Origin: a virus
Strand: one strand, 5' to 3'
UHGV virus genome: UHGV-0120107
DNA length: 15,363 bases
This document shows positions 1,909 through 7,134 of this stretch, piece by piece. Numbering within the stretch: position 1 is the stretch's first letter; the number at the start of each line of letters is the position of its first letter. Both the position numbers and the translations under genes were made by a program. Below the pieces are notes generated by a model. It worked only from the letters and a program-made list of their open reading frames with translations, ran no database searches and had not been told where the DNA came from.

Positions 1909-2271
1909 TTACCTCGCTGTAACCTGCTTACTTGTACGATGACCAGCTGCGAAAAGCGCAACTTTTGGCAGGCAGACACCAGTTTCTGGTTGCTTATGTC
2001 CAAACTCATTCGCGTACACAATGGCCGCTCTCTCCAGATTGCGTCTGTATTCTTTCTGTTGCCAGATCACGTCCTGTGCCATGAACTTAATTGGCTTAGC
2101 GTCTTCTATGCGCTCAGGCGTTTCGTGAGTACCTTTAGCCTGAATCTGCGCTCTGCTTAGAGTAGGGCGGTGCAATACTTCTGAGCTTGCCGTAATCTCA
2201 TTCTGGAGCGCTGCACGACGCTCACGACGACGACCTGATGCTGAGCCATTGAAAGCTGTTCTGCGTGTCAT
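1909..2271 (-). CDS. N: N-type transcription antiterminator (120 aa)
   Basis: Strong RBS (AGGAGG) before ATG at 2271. Arginine-rich motif GRRRERRAALQ near the N-terminus, like the lambda N ARM (TRRRERRAEKQ). C-terminus ...VALFAAGHRTSKQVTAR resembles P22 gp24 (...ALYAAGHRKSKQITAR) as I recall it. Located just downstream of pL/OL. Confidence 0.8.
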   Translation of the reverse strand: MTRRTAFNGSASGRRRERRAALQNEITASSEVLHRPTLSRAQIQAKGTHETPERIEDAKPIKFMAQDVIWQQKEYRRNLERAAIVYANEFGHKQPETGVCLPKVALFAAGHRTSKQVTAR

Positions 2272-2436: not shown

Positions 2437-2450
2437 AGGCTTTTCAGCCT
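2437..2450 (-). promoter_or_regulatory. nutL boxB-like hairpin
   Basis: Minus-strand sequence AGGCT-GAAA-AGCCT (5-bp stem, GAAA loop) between pL and the N start. Shares the core GCTGAAAAGC with the nutR candidate at 3703..3716. No convincing boxA found next to it. Confidence 0.5.
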
Positions 2451-2518
2451 CGTAGATTCATCTCTGAATCGTTGTATATTCACCGCCATGGTGAGTAATG
2501 CGTCCTGCTGATGGCTAA

Positions 2519-2547
2519 ATAGTACGATGTGTACTTTACTGAGTCAA
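2519..2547 (-). promoter_or_regulatory. Candidate pL promoter with overlapping OL operator
   Basis: Minus strand: -35 TTGACT (plus 2542..2547), 17-bp spacer, -10 TACTAT (plus 2519..2524). The operator-like site TACGATGTGTAC (2523..2534) overlaps the spacer and -10. Confidence 0.5.
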
Positions 2548-2611
2548 TACAAAATGTTCTAAATATGGTTTAGTTTTTTATAACGCTTTGTATTTAATGG
2601 GTTTATATTTT

Positions 2612-2643
2612 GGAAAAAGAAAACCCGACGCTAAGGTCGGGTT
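2612..2643 (-). terminator. Intrinsic terminator downstream of cI
   Basis: 8-bp perfect stem AACCCGAC/GTCGGGTT (2622..2629 and 2636..2643) with a 6-nt loop, followed on the minus strand by TTCTTTTT. Lies 30 bp past the cI stop. The plus-strand flank is also T-rich, so it may act in both directions. Confidence 0.6.
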
Positions 2644-2673
2644 ATTGTTGTGTGTTTTAGAGTGGTGAGGCTG

Positions 2674-3333
2674 TTAACTAAATGTCTCTTCAGGCCACTG
2701 GCTAGCGATAACTTTCCCTACTACGGAACAGCTATCATTGCATGGAATCATTGGATATTGCGGGTTTAGTGGTTGTAGGAACACCTGACCGCTATCCCTG
2801 ATCAGTTTCTTGAAGGTAAACTCGTCACCACCAAGTCTGGCTATGCAGAAATCACCTGGCTCAACAGCCTGCTCAGGGTCAACGAGAATTAACATCCCGT
2901 CAGGAAAGCTTGGCTTGGATCCTGTTGGCGCGGTCATGGAATTACCTTCAACTTCAAGCCAAAACGCACAATCACTGGCTTTTTTGGTTGTGCTGACCCA
3001 TCTCTCCGCATCACCTTTGGTAAAGGTTCTAAGCTCAGGCGAGAACATCCCGGCCTGAACATGAGAAAAAACAGGGTACTCATATTGTTTTTTAACGGGG
3101 GCAGATGAGTATTCGCCAACAGGTGAAAATGTACCGTCGTGGTTGAATGAGACGTTATCAATACCAAGGTATTTAAACACCACACCAATCTCGTCAAGAG
3201 ATGGATGACGAGATCCGCGCAACCAGTGACCAATTCCACCCTGCGTCATACCAAGCTCTTCGGCTAACTTCTCTTGAGTTATGCCGAGCTCTTTCATTCT
3301 GGATCTAGCCAGTTCATACCATTTCATTTTCAT
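2674..3333 (-). CDS. cI: CI-type prophage repressor (HTH N-terminal domain plus LexA/S24-like C-terminal domain), hybrid immunity
   Basis: C-terminal two-thirds (...[38 protein letters not shown]... [18 protein letters not shown]) closely matches lambda CI as I recall it. The N-terminal 60 aa ([37 protein letters not shown]...) is a different HTH. Start placed at ATG 3333 (AAGGG RBS) rather than the track start at 3375. Confidence 0.85.
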
Positions 3334-3344
3334 ACCCTTATTAT

Positions 3345-3414
3345 TACGATCTGTACTAAAATCATCCATGCACAAGATGTATTTTTTGTTTGCATTCTAA
3401 AAGTACATATCGTA
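3345..3414. promoter_or_regulatory. OR operator region: two copies of a 12-bp operator-like motif
   Basis: TACGATCTGTAC at 3345..3356 and its reverse complement form GTACATATCGTA at 3403..3414, between the divergent cI and cro genes. The same motif occurs once at OL (2523..2534). Confidence 0.5.
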
Positions 3415-3418
3415 TTAT
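3390..3418 (+). promoter_or_regulatory. Candidate pR promoter
   Basis: -35 TTGCAT (3390..3395), 17-bp spacer, -10 TATTAT (3413..3418). The second operator copy overlaps the spacer and -10. cro RBS GGAGG at 3436..3440. Confidence 0.45.
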
Positions 3419-3444
3419 TGCGATATGGTTACTATGGAGGGCAT

Positions 3445-3660
3445 ATGAGCAACCTACGAAAATATCGAGAGTCACTGAATATCTCTCAAACAACACTTGC
3501 TAAGGCAGTTGGATGCACACAGGGAGCTATCGGACATTGGGAATCTGGTCGTCGCTTCCCAGACCTTAAAACATGCCGTGCTCTTGTTGCGTGCCTAAAC
3601 AAGTTAGGCGCAAAAGTCAGTCTTGATGACGTGTTCCCGCCGGAACACAAAGCCGCTTAA
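3445..3660 (+). CDS. cro: Cro-like HTH repressor (71 aa)
   Basis: ATG at 3445 with GGAGG RBS, divergent from cI. HTH motif QTTLAKAVGCTQGAIGHWESGRRFP shares TQG[GA]IGHW..G.R.P with the CI N-terminal domain. The 128-aa track ORF from 3274 is an upstream extension through the operator region. Confidence 0.75.
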   Translation: MSNLRKYRESLNISQTTLAKAVGCTQGAIGHWESGRRFPDLKTCRALVACLNKLGAKVSLDDVFPPEHKAA

Positions 3661-3670
3661 TAAGCGGATC

Positions 3671-3716
3671 CGCTCTTTGTAACAACGGACATTCGTCCTA
3701 CGTCGCTGAAAAGCGA
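3671..3716 (+). promoter_or_regulatory. nutR candidate (boxA-like plus boxB hairpin)
   Basis: CGCTCTTTG at 3671..3679 (boxA consensus CGCTCTT(T)A), then hairpin TCGCT-GAAA-AGCGA at 3703..3716, just downstream of cro. Confidence 0.5.
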
Positions 3717-3800: not shown

Positions 3801-4100
3801 ATGACACAAGCAAGTTATAGCAAGCCAACACAGCGAGAAATTGATCGCGCTGAAACTGATTTACTCATCAACCTGTCAACGCTTACCCAGCGCGGTCTGG
3901 CAAAGATGATTGGCTGTCATGAATCGAAGATAAGCAGAACGGACTGGAGGTTTATTGCTTCGGTCTTGTGTGCTTTTGGAATGGCATCAGACATCAGTCC
4001 GATTAGCAGGGCTTTTAAGTATGCGCTTGATGAAATCACCAATAAAAAACGCCCGGTGTGCAAGACCGAGCGTTCTGAACAAATCCAGATGGATTTTTGA
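3801..4100 (+). CDS. cII: CII-like transcriptional activator (99 aa)
   Basis: C-terminus ...TNKKRPVCKTERSEQIQMDF matches lambda CII (...TNKKRPAATERSEQIQMEF) as I recall it. Gene order cro-cII-O fits. Confidence 0.8.
   Translation: MTQASYSKPTQREIDRAETDLLINLSTLTQRGLAKMIGCHESKISRTDWRFIASVLCAFGMASDISPISRAFKYALDEITNKKRPVCKTERSEQIQMDF
3810..3823 (-). promoter_or_regulatory. Candidate CII-binding site (TTGC-N6-TTGC) of a pRE-like promoter
   Basis: Plus strand GCAAGTTATAGCAA, which is TTGC-N6-TTGC on the minus strand, inside the first codons of cII and oriented toward cro/cI as for lambda pRE. Confidence 0.4.
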
Positions 4101-4145: not shown

Positions 4146-4290
4146 GCGAAAGCAGCAGGAAAATAAACGCGTTAATCACCGAAAAGATGTGCTTCGTGAC
4201 CAGTTCTATCAGCAGGTAAATCCTGCCATCGCGGCACCATTGCGGGAGATGCTAAACAAGCACAAAAAATCGGAGGTTAGCCATGAGTAA
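4144..4290 (+). CDS. Small basic hypothetical protein (48 aa) between cII and the replication genes
   Basis: ATG at 4144 preceded by AGGAG. Translation MRKQQENKRVNHRKDVLRDQFYQQVNPAIAAPLREMLNKHKKSEVSHE. Its stop overlaps the start of the O-like gene. Confidence 0.45.
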   Translation: MRKQQENKRVNHRKDVLRDQFYQQVNPAIAAPLREMLNKHKKSEVSHE

Positions 4291-5146
4291 CGTAGCATAT
4301 GCAAACTTCGGGGATAACCGCTCCCCGGTGGAGAAGAAAGTGGCGCAACTCGAAGATGGTTATTCGCGCCTTGCCAATGAGCTTCTTGATGCAACCATGC
4401 GATCAGGTCTGCCTGAGACAGAGCTGTGCATCCTGATGGCTGTCTGGCGCAAGACATACGGATTCAACAAGAAATTAGACTGGATCAGCAATGAGCAATT
4501 CGAGGAGATGATTGATAAACATTACACCCATTGCTCAACAGCTAAAAATAACCTCATCAGACGGAAGGTGTTGATTCAGGAAGGCCGCAAAATCGGTATG
4601 AACACTAACATTTCCGAGTGGCAAACAAAAAATAACGGATTCTGCAAAACATTAGCTAAACCTGCTAAGAAAACCTTAGCGGAACATGCTAATACCATTA
4701 AGCAGAAGTTGCTAACCACAAAAGACAATATTACAAAAGACAAGAAAGACATTAAAAACACATTGCCCGAACAAGTTCAGGCGGTGGAGGAAAAACCGTC
4801 TCAGCCTGCAAACAAAAACCAGGTCATCGATGACGCATTCGAAAACATCTTCTGGCTTGCAGGAATGCGTAAGCTGGAGAAGAAATCATCCAAGTCAGCT
4901 TTCAGAACTCAATATCAGATATGGCGTCGCGATAACGGCGGAACCCCAGAGGAATTTGCCACGTTCCTTGCAGGAGATATTGCATCTCGTGTTGGAAAGC
5001 AATTCGGCTTCGATAAGCTTCACCCATCAACGTACCTCAACGGTCAGCGCTGGAACGACGAGAAGCCAGAAACTATTCAACCACAATCCAAACCATCATC
5101 CGCAATCACCGTATCGAAAACTGGCTACGTGTTTTTCGACAGGTGA
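4283..5146 (+). CDS. Replication initiator, lambda O-like (287 aa)
   Basis: GGAGG RBS. N-terminal domain (...LEDGYSRLANELLDA...LMAVWRKTYGFNK...NISEW...) resembles lambda O as I recall it. The C-terminal half is divergent. Confidence 0.8.
   Translation: MSNVAYANFGDNRSPVEKKVAQLEDGYSRLANELLDATMRSGLPETELCILMAVWRKTYGFNKKLDWISNEQFEEMIDKHYTHCSTAKNNLIRRKVLIQEGRKIGMNTNISEWQTKNNGFCKTLAKPAKKTLAEHANTIKQKLLTTKDNITKDKKDIKNTLPEQVQAVEEKPSQPANKNQVIDDAFENIFWLAGMRKLEKKSSKSAFRTQYQIWRRDNGGTPEEFATFLAGDIASRVGKQFGFDKLHPSTYLNGQRWNDEKPETIQPQSKPSSAITVSKTGYVFFDR
4650..4755. repeat. Candidate replication origin inside the O-like gene (short repeats plus A-rich tract)
   Basis: GCTAA repeated at 4655, 4664 and 4688, with the inverted copy TTAGC at 4676 and a palindromic TTAGCTAA. 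AAAGACA repeated three times at 4721, 4736 and 4745 in an A-rich tract. Lambda ori lies at the equivalent mid-gene position. Confidence 0.3.
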
Positions 5147-5149
5147 ACC

Positions 5150-5257
5150 ATGAAATCAAAAATCAAATCGCTACTGGTCGCTGGTTATAACCACGGCTGG
5201 TTAAGTATTTCGTTTGTCGATTTCTGGTTTAAAAATCTCAATCAGAGGGAATCATGA
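5150..5257 (+). CDS. Possible small ORF (35 aa) coupled to the primase/helicase gene
   Basis: ATG at 5150 with AGGTGA upstream. Its stop overlaps the primase ATG (ATGA). Hydrophobic (MKSKIKSLLVAGYNHGWLSISFVDFWFKNLNQRES). May be spurious. Confidence 0.2.
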   Translation: MKSKIKSLLVAGYNHGWLSISFVDFWFKNLNQRES

Positions 5258-7134
5258 GGCCAAGTGAACTCAGCGACCTGCTTTGGGCGCAGGTTGACAG
5301 GGTGGCTCCGCACCTGTTGCCAAACGGCAAGAAAGAGGGGCATGAGTGGGTTGCCGGTAACGTCAACGGCGACAAGGGAAACAGCCTTAAGGTCAACCTT
5401 AGCGGCAAGAAAAAATGGGCTGATTTCGCCGAGGGAGACGGCGGTGACATGCTTGATTTGTGGATGGCATGTCGTGGAATTAACCTGCATCAGGCTATGC
5501 AGGAAGCGAAAGCATTTCTCGGTATCAAGGATGACGATCACCATTTCGATGCCAAACGTGAGAAAAAATTCTCCAGACCTGATCGCAAGAAAATCGCCCG
5601 CTACGTTACCAGAACAGAATCCCATCTTGAGTACCTGCAATCGCGTGGCATATCGCCAGAAATCGTAAAGCGCTACGAGGTTGTCAGCGGCAAGGTGTGG
5701 AATGGAGAGCGGGAACTGGATGCTCTGGTGATTCCGTACAAACGCGATGGTGAGTTGTTGCAGGTCAAGCGAATCAGCACTGAGCGCCCGGACGGGAAGA
5801 AAGTCATTATGGCAGAAGGTGATTGCGAACCTTGTCTGTTCGGATGGCAGGCTCTGGACGCTGGCGTGAGGGCGGTTGTGCTTTGCGAAGGCGAAATTGA
5901 TTGTATGAGCTATGCGCAATACGGCATCTCGGCGTTATCCGTGCCGTTTGGTGGCGGGAAAGGCGCTAAGCAGCAGTGGATTGAGTTTGAGTATCACAAC
6001 CTCGACAGGTTTGAGGAAATATTCATCTCGATGGACGTTGATGATGTTGGTCGTGAAGCCGCAAGGGAAATCGCAAGCCGACTCGGTGAACATCGTTGCC
6101 GTCTTGTTACTCTGCCGTACAAAGACATCAACGAATGCCTGATGAACGGTGTTACCGAGGATGAAATCTGGCAGTACATCGGCACGGCATCCTACTTCGA
6201 TCCTGAAGAACTCTACAGCGCGCGAGAGTTTTACCAGGACACTATCAACGCTTTCTACGGCAAGCAGCAGTATCTGTTTAATCCACCGTGGGAATCTCTG
6301 GCAGATAAATTCCAGTTCCGTGAGGCAGAGTTGACGCTGGTCAATGGTGTGAACGGTCACGGAAAAACGGAGGTTGTCGGGCATATGGCACTTGAGGCAA
6401 TGCGTCAGGGTGTGAAGACGTGCATCGCGTCACTTGAGCTGAAGCCTGGTATTCTCCTTAAGCGCCTTACCCGTCAGGCGACGTGCTGCAAGATGCCGCC
6501 AGTGCTGGAAATTGACTCTGCATTTAAATTTTATGACGAAAGACTTTGGGTGTTTGGTCTGACCGGAACGGCGAAAGCCGACAGGCTGATCGAAATATTC
6601 GACTACGCTCGCCGCCGATACTGGATCCAGTTATTCATCATCGACAGCCTGATGAAATGTGGCATAGGCGACGATGACTATAACGGGCAGAAGGCGTTTG
6701 TTGACTCGATTTGCGACTTCAAAAACAAAACAAACTCCCACGTCATTCTCGTTACTCACTCGCGAAAAGGAGACAGCGAAGAAAAACCAACCGGGAAAAT
6801 GGACGTAAAAGGCTCTGGAGCGATAACAGACCTGACAGACAACCTTTTCATCATCTGGCGTAACAAGGCTCGCGAGAGAGCGTTACAGAGAGTTCAGAGT
6901 GGTGAAAAGATGTCAGAGAAGGACGAACAGCTACTGGCATCTCCGGCATCTGTTTTGATGCTTGAAAAGCAACGTAACGGCGAAGGTTGGGAAGGTGGTG
7001 TCCCGTTGTTCCTTGACGAGCAATCGCACCAGTTCCTGCAACTTGAATCAGGATCGCCATATAGCTACATCGCCAATATGCCGAAATCGGAATATGACGA
7101 GGCGTGGCGACAGGAAAACGTGACGGAGTATTAA
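5254..7134 (+). CDS. Fused DNA primase (Toprim) / DnaB-family helicase replication protein (626 aa)
   Basis: RBS AGAGGGA. Toprim-like motifs (VVLCEGEIDCMSYAQYG and FISMDVDD). Walker A NGVNGHGKTE and Walker B-like LFIIDSLM in the C-terminal half. Takes the place of lambda P or P22 gene 12 after the O-like initiator. Confidence 0.8.
   Translation: MRPSELSDLLWAQVDRVAPHLLPNGKKEGHEWVAGNVNGDKGNSLKVNLSGKKKWADFAEGDGGDMLDLWMACRGINLHQAMQEAKAFLGIKDDDHHFDAKREKKFSRPDRKKIARYVTRTESHLEYLQSRGISPEIVKRYEVVSGKVWNGERELDALVIPYKRDGELLQVKRISTERPDGKKVIMAEGDCEPCLFGWQALDAGVRAVVLCEGEIDCMSYAQYGISALSVPFGGGKGAKQQWIEFEYHNLDRFEEIFISMDVDDVGREAAREIASRLGEHRCRLVTLPYKDINECLMNGVTEDEIWQYIGTASYFDPEELYSAREFYQDTINAFYGKQQYLFNPPWESLADKFQFREAELTLVNGVNGHGKTEVVGHMALEAMRQGVKTCIASLELKPGILLKRLTRQATCCKMPPVLEIDSAFKFYDERLWVFGLTGTAKADRLIEIFDYARRRYWIQLFIIDSLMKCGIGDDDYNGQKAFVDSICDFKNKTNSHVILVTHSRKGDSEEKPTGKMDVKGSGAITDLTDNLFIIWRNKARERALQRVQSGEKMSEKDEQLLASPASVLMLEKQRNGEGWEGGVPLFLDEQSHQFLQLESGSPYSYIANMPKSEYDEAWRQENVTEY

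Follow-up and report, generated by a model that had tools for sequence, protein, structure and literature searches.

A compact lambdoid immunity region, very probably of the known VT2-Sakai type, with a lambda-like CI tail and a non-lambda DNA-binding domain

The window analyzed here is the whole 15,363-nucleotide stretch of the viral genome UHGV-0120107. Between positions 2519 and 3660 it carries a repressor gene and a cro gene on opposite strands, together with two groups of operator and promoter sequences. The cI repressor gene lies on the minus strand at 2674-3333 and encodes 219 residues from an ATG at 3333, with an alternative ATG at 3327 (open reading frame list and Pfam). The cro gene, on the plus strand at 3445-3660, encodes 71 residues. 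On either side, Pfam identifies an N-type antiterminator gene at 1909-2271 (minus strand), cII at 3801-4100 and, at 4283-5146, an O-type replication gene. The gene order around cI and cro is that of the normal early region of a lambdoid phage. The interval between cI and OL holds a terminator and is free of cargo genes, so that OL1 and OR1 are 881 bp apart. In lambda the same slot holds rexAB, and in VT2-Sakai, phi458 and 2B8 it holds other ORFs. The terminator, an intrinsic t_imm-like signal for the cI transcript found by a terminator scan, is located at 2622-2643 on the minus strand and consists of the hairpin AACCCGACC-TTAG-CGTCGGGTT with a T-rich tail. Positions 2616-2651 align over 36 bp with lambda 35799-35834, a segment next to the end of rexB, at 89% identity. 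One compensatory pair (A-T to G-C) sets the stem apart from that of lambda. Another terminator-like hairpin on the minus strand, at 3406-3427, was rejected since it is made of OR1 and neighboring sequence that is variable among alleles.

The CI protein is 96-100% identical to the annotated cI products of VT2-Sakai-type phages. It contains an HTH_3 domain at residues 11-58 (8e-11) and a Peptidase_S24 domain at residues 87-209 (9e-29), both assigned by Pfam. The two parts of the protein differ sharply in their relation to lambda. The C-terminal block, encoded at 2680-3084 on the minus strand and comprising the end of the linker and the C-terminal domain (residues 84-219), is 94% identical in DNA to lambda cI over 405 bp (blastn) and matches lambda CI at 133 of 136 residues (97.8%). 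This DNA likeness ends at codon 83/84, in the inter-domain linker. The Ala94-Gly95 cleavage site, Ser132 and Lys175 align with lambda 112-113, 150 and 193 (Met-inclusive numbering), and the catalytic motifs QAGMF, GNSMT and FKKLI are all found. With an HTH and a Peptidase S24 domain, an Ala-Gly site and a Ser/Lys dyad, CI has the make-up of a self-cleaving repressor of the LexA/lambda-CI kind, and its 98% identity to the lambda C-terminal domain suggests that autocleavage would be stimulated by RecA. Solved structures exist for the lambda C-terminal domain.

The N-terminal DNA-binding domain (residues 1-83, encoded at 3085-3333 on the minus strand, with the recognition helix QGGIGHWL) is unlike that of lambda. 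Only 24 positions match lambda CI, about 31%, and a blastn comparison of 3085-3333 with lambda finds no similarity. The domain is 96% identical to its counterpart in VT2-Sakai and the Stx1 phage, 56% to that of g341c and 48% to that of ST64T. An earlier reading of the DNA, made from the sequence alone, had described a lambda-type CI C-terminal domain joined to a different DNA-binding domain, and the identities of 133 of 136 against about 31% confirm both halves of that description. The repressor is modular, a non-lambda HTH domain being combined with the cleavage and oligomerization domain of the lambda type. GenBank and PGAP place the start of cI upstream, at an ATG or TTG at 3369 or 3375. 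A frame opened at either of these would extend across OR3 and OR2, and the annotated genes are probably too long. In ST64T and g341c, it is the Met at 3333 that is conserved.

Cro is also an HTH_3 protein (4e-12 by Pfam), of the 434-Cro and not the lambda-Cro type, with the recognition helix QGAIGHWE. Its Pfam matches are limited to HTH_3, HTH_31 and HTH_19, which places it outside the lambda Cro fold family. Its relatives in the PDB are 28tn (4.5e-17), P22 C2 and the 434 repressor. The folds of CI and Cro are already fixed by the Cro homologue 28tn and by the structures of the lambda C-terminal domain. Cro (GCTQGAIGHWESGRRFPD) and CI both fit TQG[GA]IGHW..G.R.P, the shared recognition motif noticed in the sequence-only reading, and their HTH domains have 35% of residues in common overall. 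The register of helix 3 in Cro was taken from an alignment to the 434 repressor and from established knowledge of the 434 complex. In this alignment, Q26-G27-A28-I29-G30-H31-W32 of Cro lies at helix 3, opposite Q28-Q29-...-Q33 of the 434 repressor. Residues Q28, Q29 and Q33 in helix 3 of the 434 repressor contact bases.

The 12-mer TACGATNTGTAC occurs exactly at 2523-2534 (plus strand), 3345-3356 (plus strand) and 3403-3414 (minus strand), just where the sequence-only reading had put it. Even with one mismatch allowed, it has no further match in the 15.4-kb window. Three occurrences compare with 0.14 expected, and none of 200 shuffles reached three. This 12-mer forms the central part of a longer dyad of 17 bp, AAGTACA-N3-TGTACTT. 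A degenerate pattern of this dyad, with up to two mismatches, matches seven places in the window, six of which fall in two clusters at 2520/2545/2579 and 3342/3368/3401. The seventh match, at 3568-3582 inside cro, has two mismatches, is within chance expectation and was set aside. Because the degenerate pattern had been drawn from the six sites, a position weight matrix (PWM) was also built from the three exact sites only. In the 15.4-kb window this matrix ranks 2579 fourth (13.3 bits) and 2545 fifth (11.8 bits), with the following match at 8.0 bits. The site at 3368 comes only tenth and is therefore weak by PWM.

The six sites, to which no strand is assigned, form two groups of three. On the left, OL1 (TAGTACGATGTGTACTT, 2520-2536) contains an exact 12-mer, has the top PWM score in the window and is homologous to VT2-Sakai OL1 (TAGTACGATATGTACTT). 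OL2 (CAATACAAAATGTTCTA, 2545-2561) and OL3 (TATAACGCTTTGTATTT, 2579-2595) are homologous to the published VT2-Sakai OL2 and OL3, and a repeat finder relates the two to each other as inverted repeats. On the right, OR3 (TATTACGATCTGTACTA, 3342-3358) contains an exact 12-mer and is homologous to the published VT2-Sakai OR3 (TATTACGCTCTGTACTG). OR1 (AAGTACATATCGTATTA, 3401-3417) contains the 12-mer on the minus strand and is homologous to the published VT2-Sakai OR1. Between them, OR2 (ATGCACAAGATGTATTT, 3368-3384) has one good half-site; it is published and annotated as OR2, and its position is kept in all five alleles compared.

These sites are interlaced with the promoters. A consensus scan places pL at 2519-2547 on the minus strand, with a -35 TTGACT (2547..2542), a 17-nt spacer and a -10 TACTAT (2524..2519), at 9 of 12 consensus matches. 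The position is homologous to that of a promoter annotated at OL in AP005153. The same kind of scan places pR at 3389-3418 on the plus strand as TTTGCA-18-TATTAT, with a -35 TTTGCA/TTGCAT at 3389-3395 and a -10 TATTAT at 3413-3418, and the major rightward promoter of AP005153 is annotated at the homologous place. OL1 overlaps the -10 and spacer of pL, OL2 overlaps the pL -35 by 3 bp, and OR1 overlaps the pR -10. The overlap of the motif with the predicted -10 elements (2524..2519 for pL and 3413-3418 for pR) had already been pointed out from the letters and holds in the promoter scan. The consensus scan missed the hexamers of pRM. By inspection of the sequence, a putative pRM lies at 3340-3368 on the minus strand, with a -10 AATAAT (3345..3340), which OR3 overlaps, and a weak -35 TGGATG (3368..3363). 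The maintenance promoter of AP005153 is annotated at the homologous place. The centers of OR2 and OR3 are 43 and 17 bp from the ATG at 3333, compared with 42 and 19 bp in lambda, and these distances fit a lambda-like pRM with this -10 and a leaderless message. Transcription from pRM would start at or near the A of ATG 3333, as in lambda.

The repeat finder pairs OL1 with OR1 at 90% complementarity along a 20-nt stretch that includes the -10 hexamers. The motif could on this account be a by-product of duplicated promoter sequence, with pL and pR sharing a -10 region, and not an operator at all. We find this barely credible, since OR3, OL2, OL3 and OR2 lie away from those -10s and yet have the same dyad, and promoters do not require internal two-fold symmetry. 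The pattern of conservation also argues against it. In an alignment of five distinct alleles (the window, 683R2, phi458, 2B8 and VT2-Sakai), variable columns number 8 of 84 in the half-sites, 6 of 18 in the centers (positions 8-10) and 24 of 50 in the inter-operator spacers, with p = 1.4e-6 for half-sites against spacers (Fisher). Thus, the half-sites are conserved while the centers and spacers drift. The same code is, moreover, present at OR and OL of ST64T. In the relatives examined, operator spacing is constant within 1 bp (OL1-OL2 25, OL2-OL3 33-34, OR3-OR2 26 and OR2-OR1 32-33 bp), whereas OL1 and OR1 lie between 880 and 2,287 bp apart, according to the cargo that separates cI from OL. 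We favor operators. The sequence-only reading was right that the motif is an operator core and its three 12-mer sites are real, but its description was partial: it missed the 17-bp dyad along with OL2, OL3 and OR2, and its count of two sites between cI and cro and one at pL falls short of the published three and three.

The region resembles lambda in having three plus three 17-bp operators, a C-terminal CI domain with the lambda cleavage site and Ser/Lys dyad, and a terminator like the one near rexB. Helix 3 is QSGVGAL in lambda CI and QGGIGHW here, and the lambda operators (TATCACCGCCAGTGGTA) are unrelated to those of the window. The lambda operator (TATCACCGC-type) has no match in the window at up to 3 mismatches, which separates the region from imm-lambda. 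Cro is an all-helical HTH_3 protein outside the lambda Cro family, rexA and rexB are absent from the window, and the spacing of OR1 and OR2 is 33 bp instead of 24 bp, roughly one helical turn more. The likeness to phage 434 is that the N-terminal domain of the repressor and Cro are paralogous HTH_3 domains with common helix-3 residues, and therefore the two proteins would read the same operators. However, similarity in sequence to the 434 repressor is marginal (E = 0.25-0.3), the 434 operators are 14 bp long and not 17 bp, and the window has no 434 operator (ACAA-N6-TTGT), so the region is not of the 434 immunity type. The repressor type of the Stx phage BAA2326 was rejected as its footprinted operators (ATAACTGTGCGTAATG and others) are unrelated to the sites found here. 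The H-19B, 933W, phi80, HK022, HK97 and N15 types were dropped because Glinkowska 2010 treats Nil2 as separate from them. Literature searches on Nil2/2851 and on hybrid repressors yielded no specific result.

With an N-terminal domain only about 31% identical to lambda, and with neither lambda nor 434 operator sequences in the window, the region could be taken for an uncharacterized specificity in which a novel DNA-binding domain is fused to the lambda cleavage module. Our search also found no specific NCBIfam or Pfam model for the VT2-Sakai repressor type. Nevertheless, this reading, put forward in the sequence-only analysis, is very improbable. In VT2-Sakai (NC_000902) and in the Stx1 converting phage (AP005153), Cro is identical at all 71 residues, and 80 of the 83 residues of the CI N-terminal domain match (96.4%), with helix 3 unchanged. 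Cro is likewise 100% identical, and the CI recognition helix identical, in the Stx2-II converting phage, and the PA series has a 100% identical Cro and a 96% identical CI N-terminal domain. A megablast of 2450-3700 gives matches in 109 phage records. The CI N-terminal domain is at least 95% identical in 63 phage records, among them Stx2 phage 1717, the PA series and several Stx2a phages. Over the whole region, Stx2 phage II (AP005154), Nil2 and 2851 show about 93% DNA identity.

The operators, too, have been annotated and published. In AP005153, OR and OL each contain three features annotated as "putative operator", and these are homologous in position, one to one, to the six sites described here. 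Table S5 of Yin et al. 2015 (PMC4587872) gives the same six 17-mers in PST1 phages, citing Fattah et al. 2000, and the PST1 operators are described there as the "same as operator sequences in E. coli O157:H7 Sakai". Table S1 of PMC10742460 presents the same sites as VT2-SA OR1-3 and OL1-3, again citing Fattah et al. 2000. Even the domain pattern has been described before: as PMC10742460 reports of Fattah et al. 2000, the homology of VT2-Sakai CI to lambda is high in the C-terminal part and low in the N-terminal part. At least 80% of the region is also present in 768 of 5,426 complete E. coli genomes, about one in seven, and E. coli Z142-1 has a 100% match among these. The replication genes of the Z142-1 prophage differ from those of the window.

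We conclude that this is very probably a lambdoid E. coli prophage immunity region (OL/pL, t_imm, cI, OR/pRM/pR and cro) of the known VT2-Sakai type, with which it shares Cro, CI helix 3 and six operators in homologous positions. The region is not new: descriptions of its immunity type date back to 2000, and the type is very common among E. coli genomes. The claim of a new immunity specificity is thereby withdrawn, since the comparison of the CI N-terminal domain and Cro with known types, which the sequence-only reading had itself proposed as a check, led to a type already described. The CI C-terminal domain of VT2-Sakai is 97.1% identical to that in the window, the six 17-bp operators have the same order and spacing (25/33-34 at OL and 26/32-33 at OR), and pL and pR are homologous. 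In VT2-Sakai, OL1 and OR1 are 2,287 bp apart with about 1.4 kb of cargo ORFs, compared with 881 bp and a terminator only in the window. Of the ten operator bases that differ, six are at central positions 8-10 and two are at position 17. Each operator departs from the published VT2-Sakai sequence by 1-2 bases. The flanking N and replication genes are different (mosaic), and the VT2-Sakai reference cI has an in-frame stop whereas the cI gene in the window is intact.

After the VT2-Sakai type, the nearest CI N-terminal domains are those of Salmonella P22-like phages. In ST64T, which has phage L-type immunity, helix 3 of c2 is QGAIGHWL (TQGAIGHWLNG) where the window has QGGIGHWL, Cro is 69% identical, and the OR spacing is 34/26 compared with 33/26. 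The operator code of the window recurs at OR and OL of ST64T when the PWM is transferred. However, the ST64T C-terminal domain is only 47% identical and not lambda-type, the N-terminal domain is 48% identical, and the host of ST64T and phage L belongs to another genus, Salmonella. Thus, phage L/ST64T shares the operator code and the helix with the window, but its repressor is not orthologous over the whole length. The C1 repressor of g341c is related over its full length, with an N-terminal domain 56% identical and a lambda-like C-terminal domain 79% identical, and g341c/epsilon34 has annotated putative repressor sites of the form ATACA-N3-TGTAT. It differs in its recognition helix (KGAVSHW) and in having only two annotated sites, which score lower with the PWM from the window. 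Judged by these sequences, the window combines a lambda-family tail with a DNA-reading module (N-terminal domain, cro and operators) that belongs to the L family. The full-length relation to g341c shows that this head was joined to a lambda-like tail earlier than a single recent swap would imply. With the same combination found in the moderately diverged g341c, the recent exchange with lambda may have gone in either direction.

The sequences, the site statistics, the pattern of conservation and the identity to published sites are direct results. From these we infer binding, affinity order, cooperativity and promoter start points, and suggest the following mechanism. CI dimers would read the six 17-bp dyads through an HTH of the 434/P22 class with QGGIGHW in helix 3. 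Occupancy of OL1/OL2 and OR1 would block pL and pR. Lying 43 bp upstream of ATG 3333, much as in lambda, OR2 is in a position to activate pRM, and OR3, over the pRM -10, would shut off pRM when repressor is abundant. Because the C-terminal domain is 98% identical to that of lambda CI, it is expected to provide dimerization, pairwise cooperativity, OL-OR looping over 881 bp and RecA-stimulated cleavage at Ala94-Gly95, with Ser132 and Lys175 performing the self-cleavage. Given the 33-bp spacing of OR1 and OR2, lambda-style pairwise cooperativity at OR is our assumption. Cro, with a helix 3 almost the same as that of CI, would bind the same sites and drive the lytic state.

It is possible, though we lean against it, that the specificity is not fully separate and overlaps in function with that of lambda, through the common C-terminal domain or weak operator recognition, or with that of L/ST64T, through the operator code. 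On the lambda side, the common C-terminal domain would act by forming mixed oligomers. Cross-immunity between VT2-Sakai and lambda was observed by Fattah et al. 2000, as cited in PMC10742460, and this questions how fully distinct the specificity is; the report is, however, second-hand. The literature searched gave no direct measurements of the cognate CI or Cro binding to the six sites, and the sole EMSA we found on VT2-Sakai-type operators used lambda CI (PMC10742460). In that paper, lambda CI binds VT2-Sakai operators with KDapp of 3.7-6.4 µM and its own sites with KDapp of 0.2-3 µM. It binds its own strong sites (0.2-0.35 µM) about 10-25 times more tightly, and its micromolar binding to the VT2-Sakai operators may be non-specific. 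On the Salmonella side, the overlap would be favored by the ST64T c2 helix 3 and the 69% identical Cro, but at 48% identity between the N-terminal domains residues outside helix 3 may alter specificity, and the literature searched yielded no in vivo data on the L/ST64T pairing.

More tentatively still, we raise the rather unlikely idea that VT2-Sakai-type and L/ST64T phages recognize each other's operators and that this CI forms mixed oligomers with lambda CI. The former might follow from one operator code and nearly one helix, despite different oligomerization and cleavage domains, and the latter might occur in double lysogens since the repressor carries a lambda tail. Our literature search found no tests of either with the cognate proteins. 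Mutual operator recognition, if true, would mean partial cross-immunity or cross-induction between genera.

As a discovery, the region matters little and is ordinary. In E. coli O157:H7 Sakai and many relatives, its immunity type governs how the Stx2a prophage is induced and hence how much toxin is produced. The window presents a compact, cargo-free form of this switch, and no toxin gene was seen in it. Correct operator maps are useful in annotation. That the operator model carries over to phage L/ST64T also bears, as a small point, on the shuffling of immunity modules at the repressor linker.

The cI gene is intact in the window and in the Stx1 converting phage (AP005153), in contrast to the VT2-Sakai reference (NC_000902, 2901-3596, minus strand), in which an in-frame stop stands where the TQGG recognition helix has its Gln codon, and the annotation splits the gene into two fragments. 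In database annotations, i.e., AP005153 and the PGAP record of the Z142-1 prophage of E. coli, cI starts at an upstream ATG or TTG, corresponding to window 3369 or 3375. The frame of this extension (window 3334-3375) runs across OR3 and OR2. It is the Met at 3333 that is conserved in ST64T and g341c, and AAGGG is found 7 nt upstream of the ATG at 3327. The long annotated form is probably an over-extension.

The c2 protein of Salmonella phage ST64T has a recognition helix that is nearly that of the window CI, though its C-terminal domain is unrelated. The operator code at 2520-2595 and 3342-3417 recurs in ST64T, at 1416-1492 and 2228-2299. Based on these sequences, the VT2-Sakai-type and ST64T immunity types may recognize each other's operators. 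Cro (3445-3660) shares ~50% identity over 69 residues with PDB code 28tn, which was deposited under the title 'lambda repressor-like protein'. Thus, a solved structure exists for a close relative of Cro.

The interval between cI and OL (2596-2673) is gene-free, and its sole element is a t_imm-like terminator that ends the cI transcript. The stem differs from that of lambda by one compensatory pair, A-T to G-C. In lambda this slot is occupied by rexAB, and in VT2-Sakai, phi458 and 2B8 by other cargo ORFs. Because there are no genes here in the window, OL1 and OR1 are only 881 bp apart, compared with 1.9-2.3 kb in the latter three phages. Adjoining t_imm in lambda, at a position homologous to OL3 of the window, is the sequence AAATACAATTGGTTATG (35759-35775; 760-776 in L003, our lambda record). 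It scores 12.0 bits with the operator position weight matrix used for the window, which exceeds every background hit in the 15-kb window. This sequence could be due to chance, or it could be a leftover from a common ancestor of the cI-OL interval.

The replication module (4283-7134) is made up of an O-type initiator and, after it, an ORF of the primase/helicase type that encodes 626 aa. In the Z142-1 prophage, the immunity region is identical, but the replication pair is another one, i.e., a replication protein and an ATP-binding protein, which places the mosaic junction just right of cII. Candidate N-utilization sites were identified by eye. These are a nutL boxB hairpin, AGGCTGAAAAGCCT (2437-2450, minus strand), and, on the plus strand, a nutR boxA, CGCTCTTTG (3671-3679), and boxB, TCGCTGAAAAGCGA (3703-3716). 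Both candidate boxB hairpins have a GAAAA-type loop.
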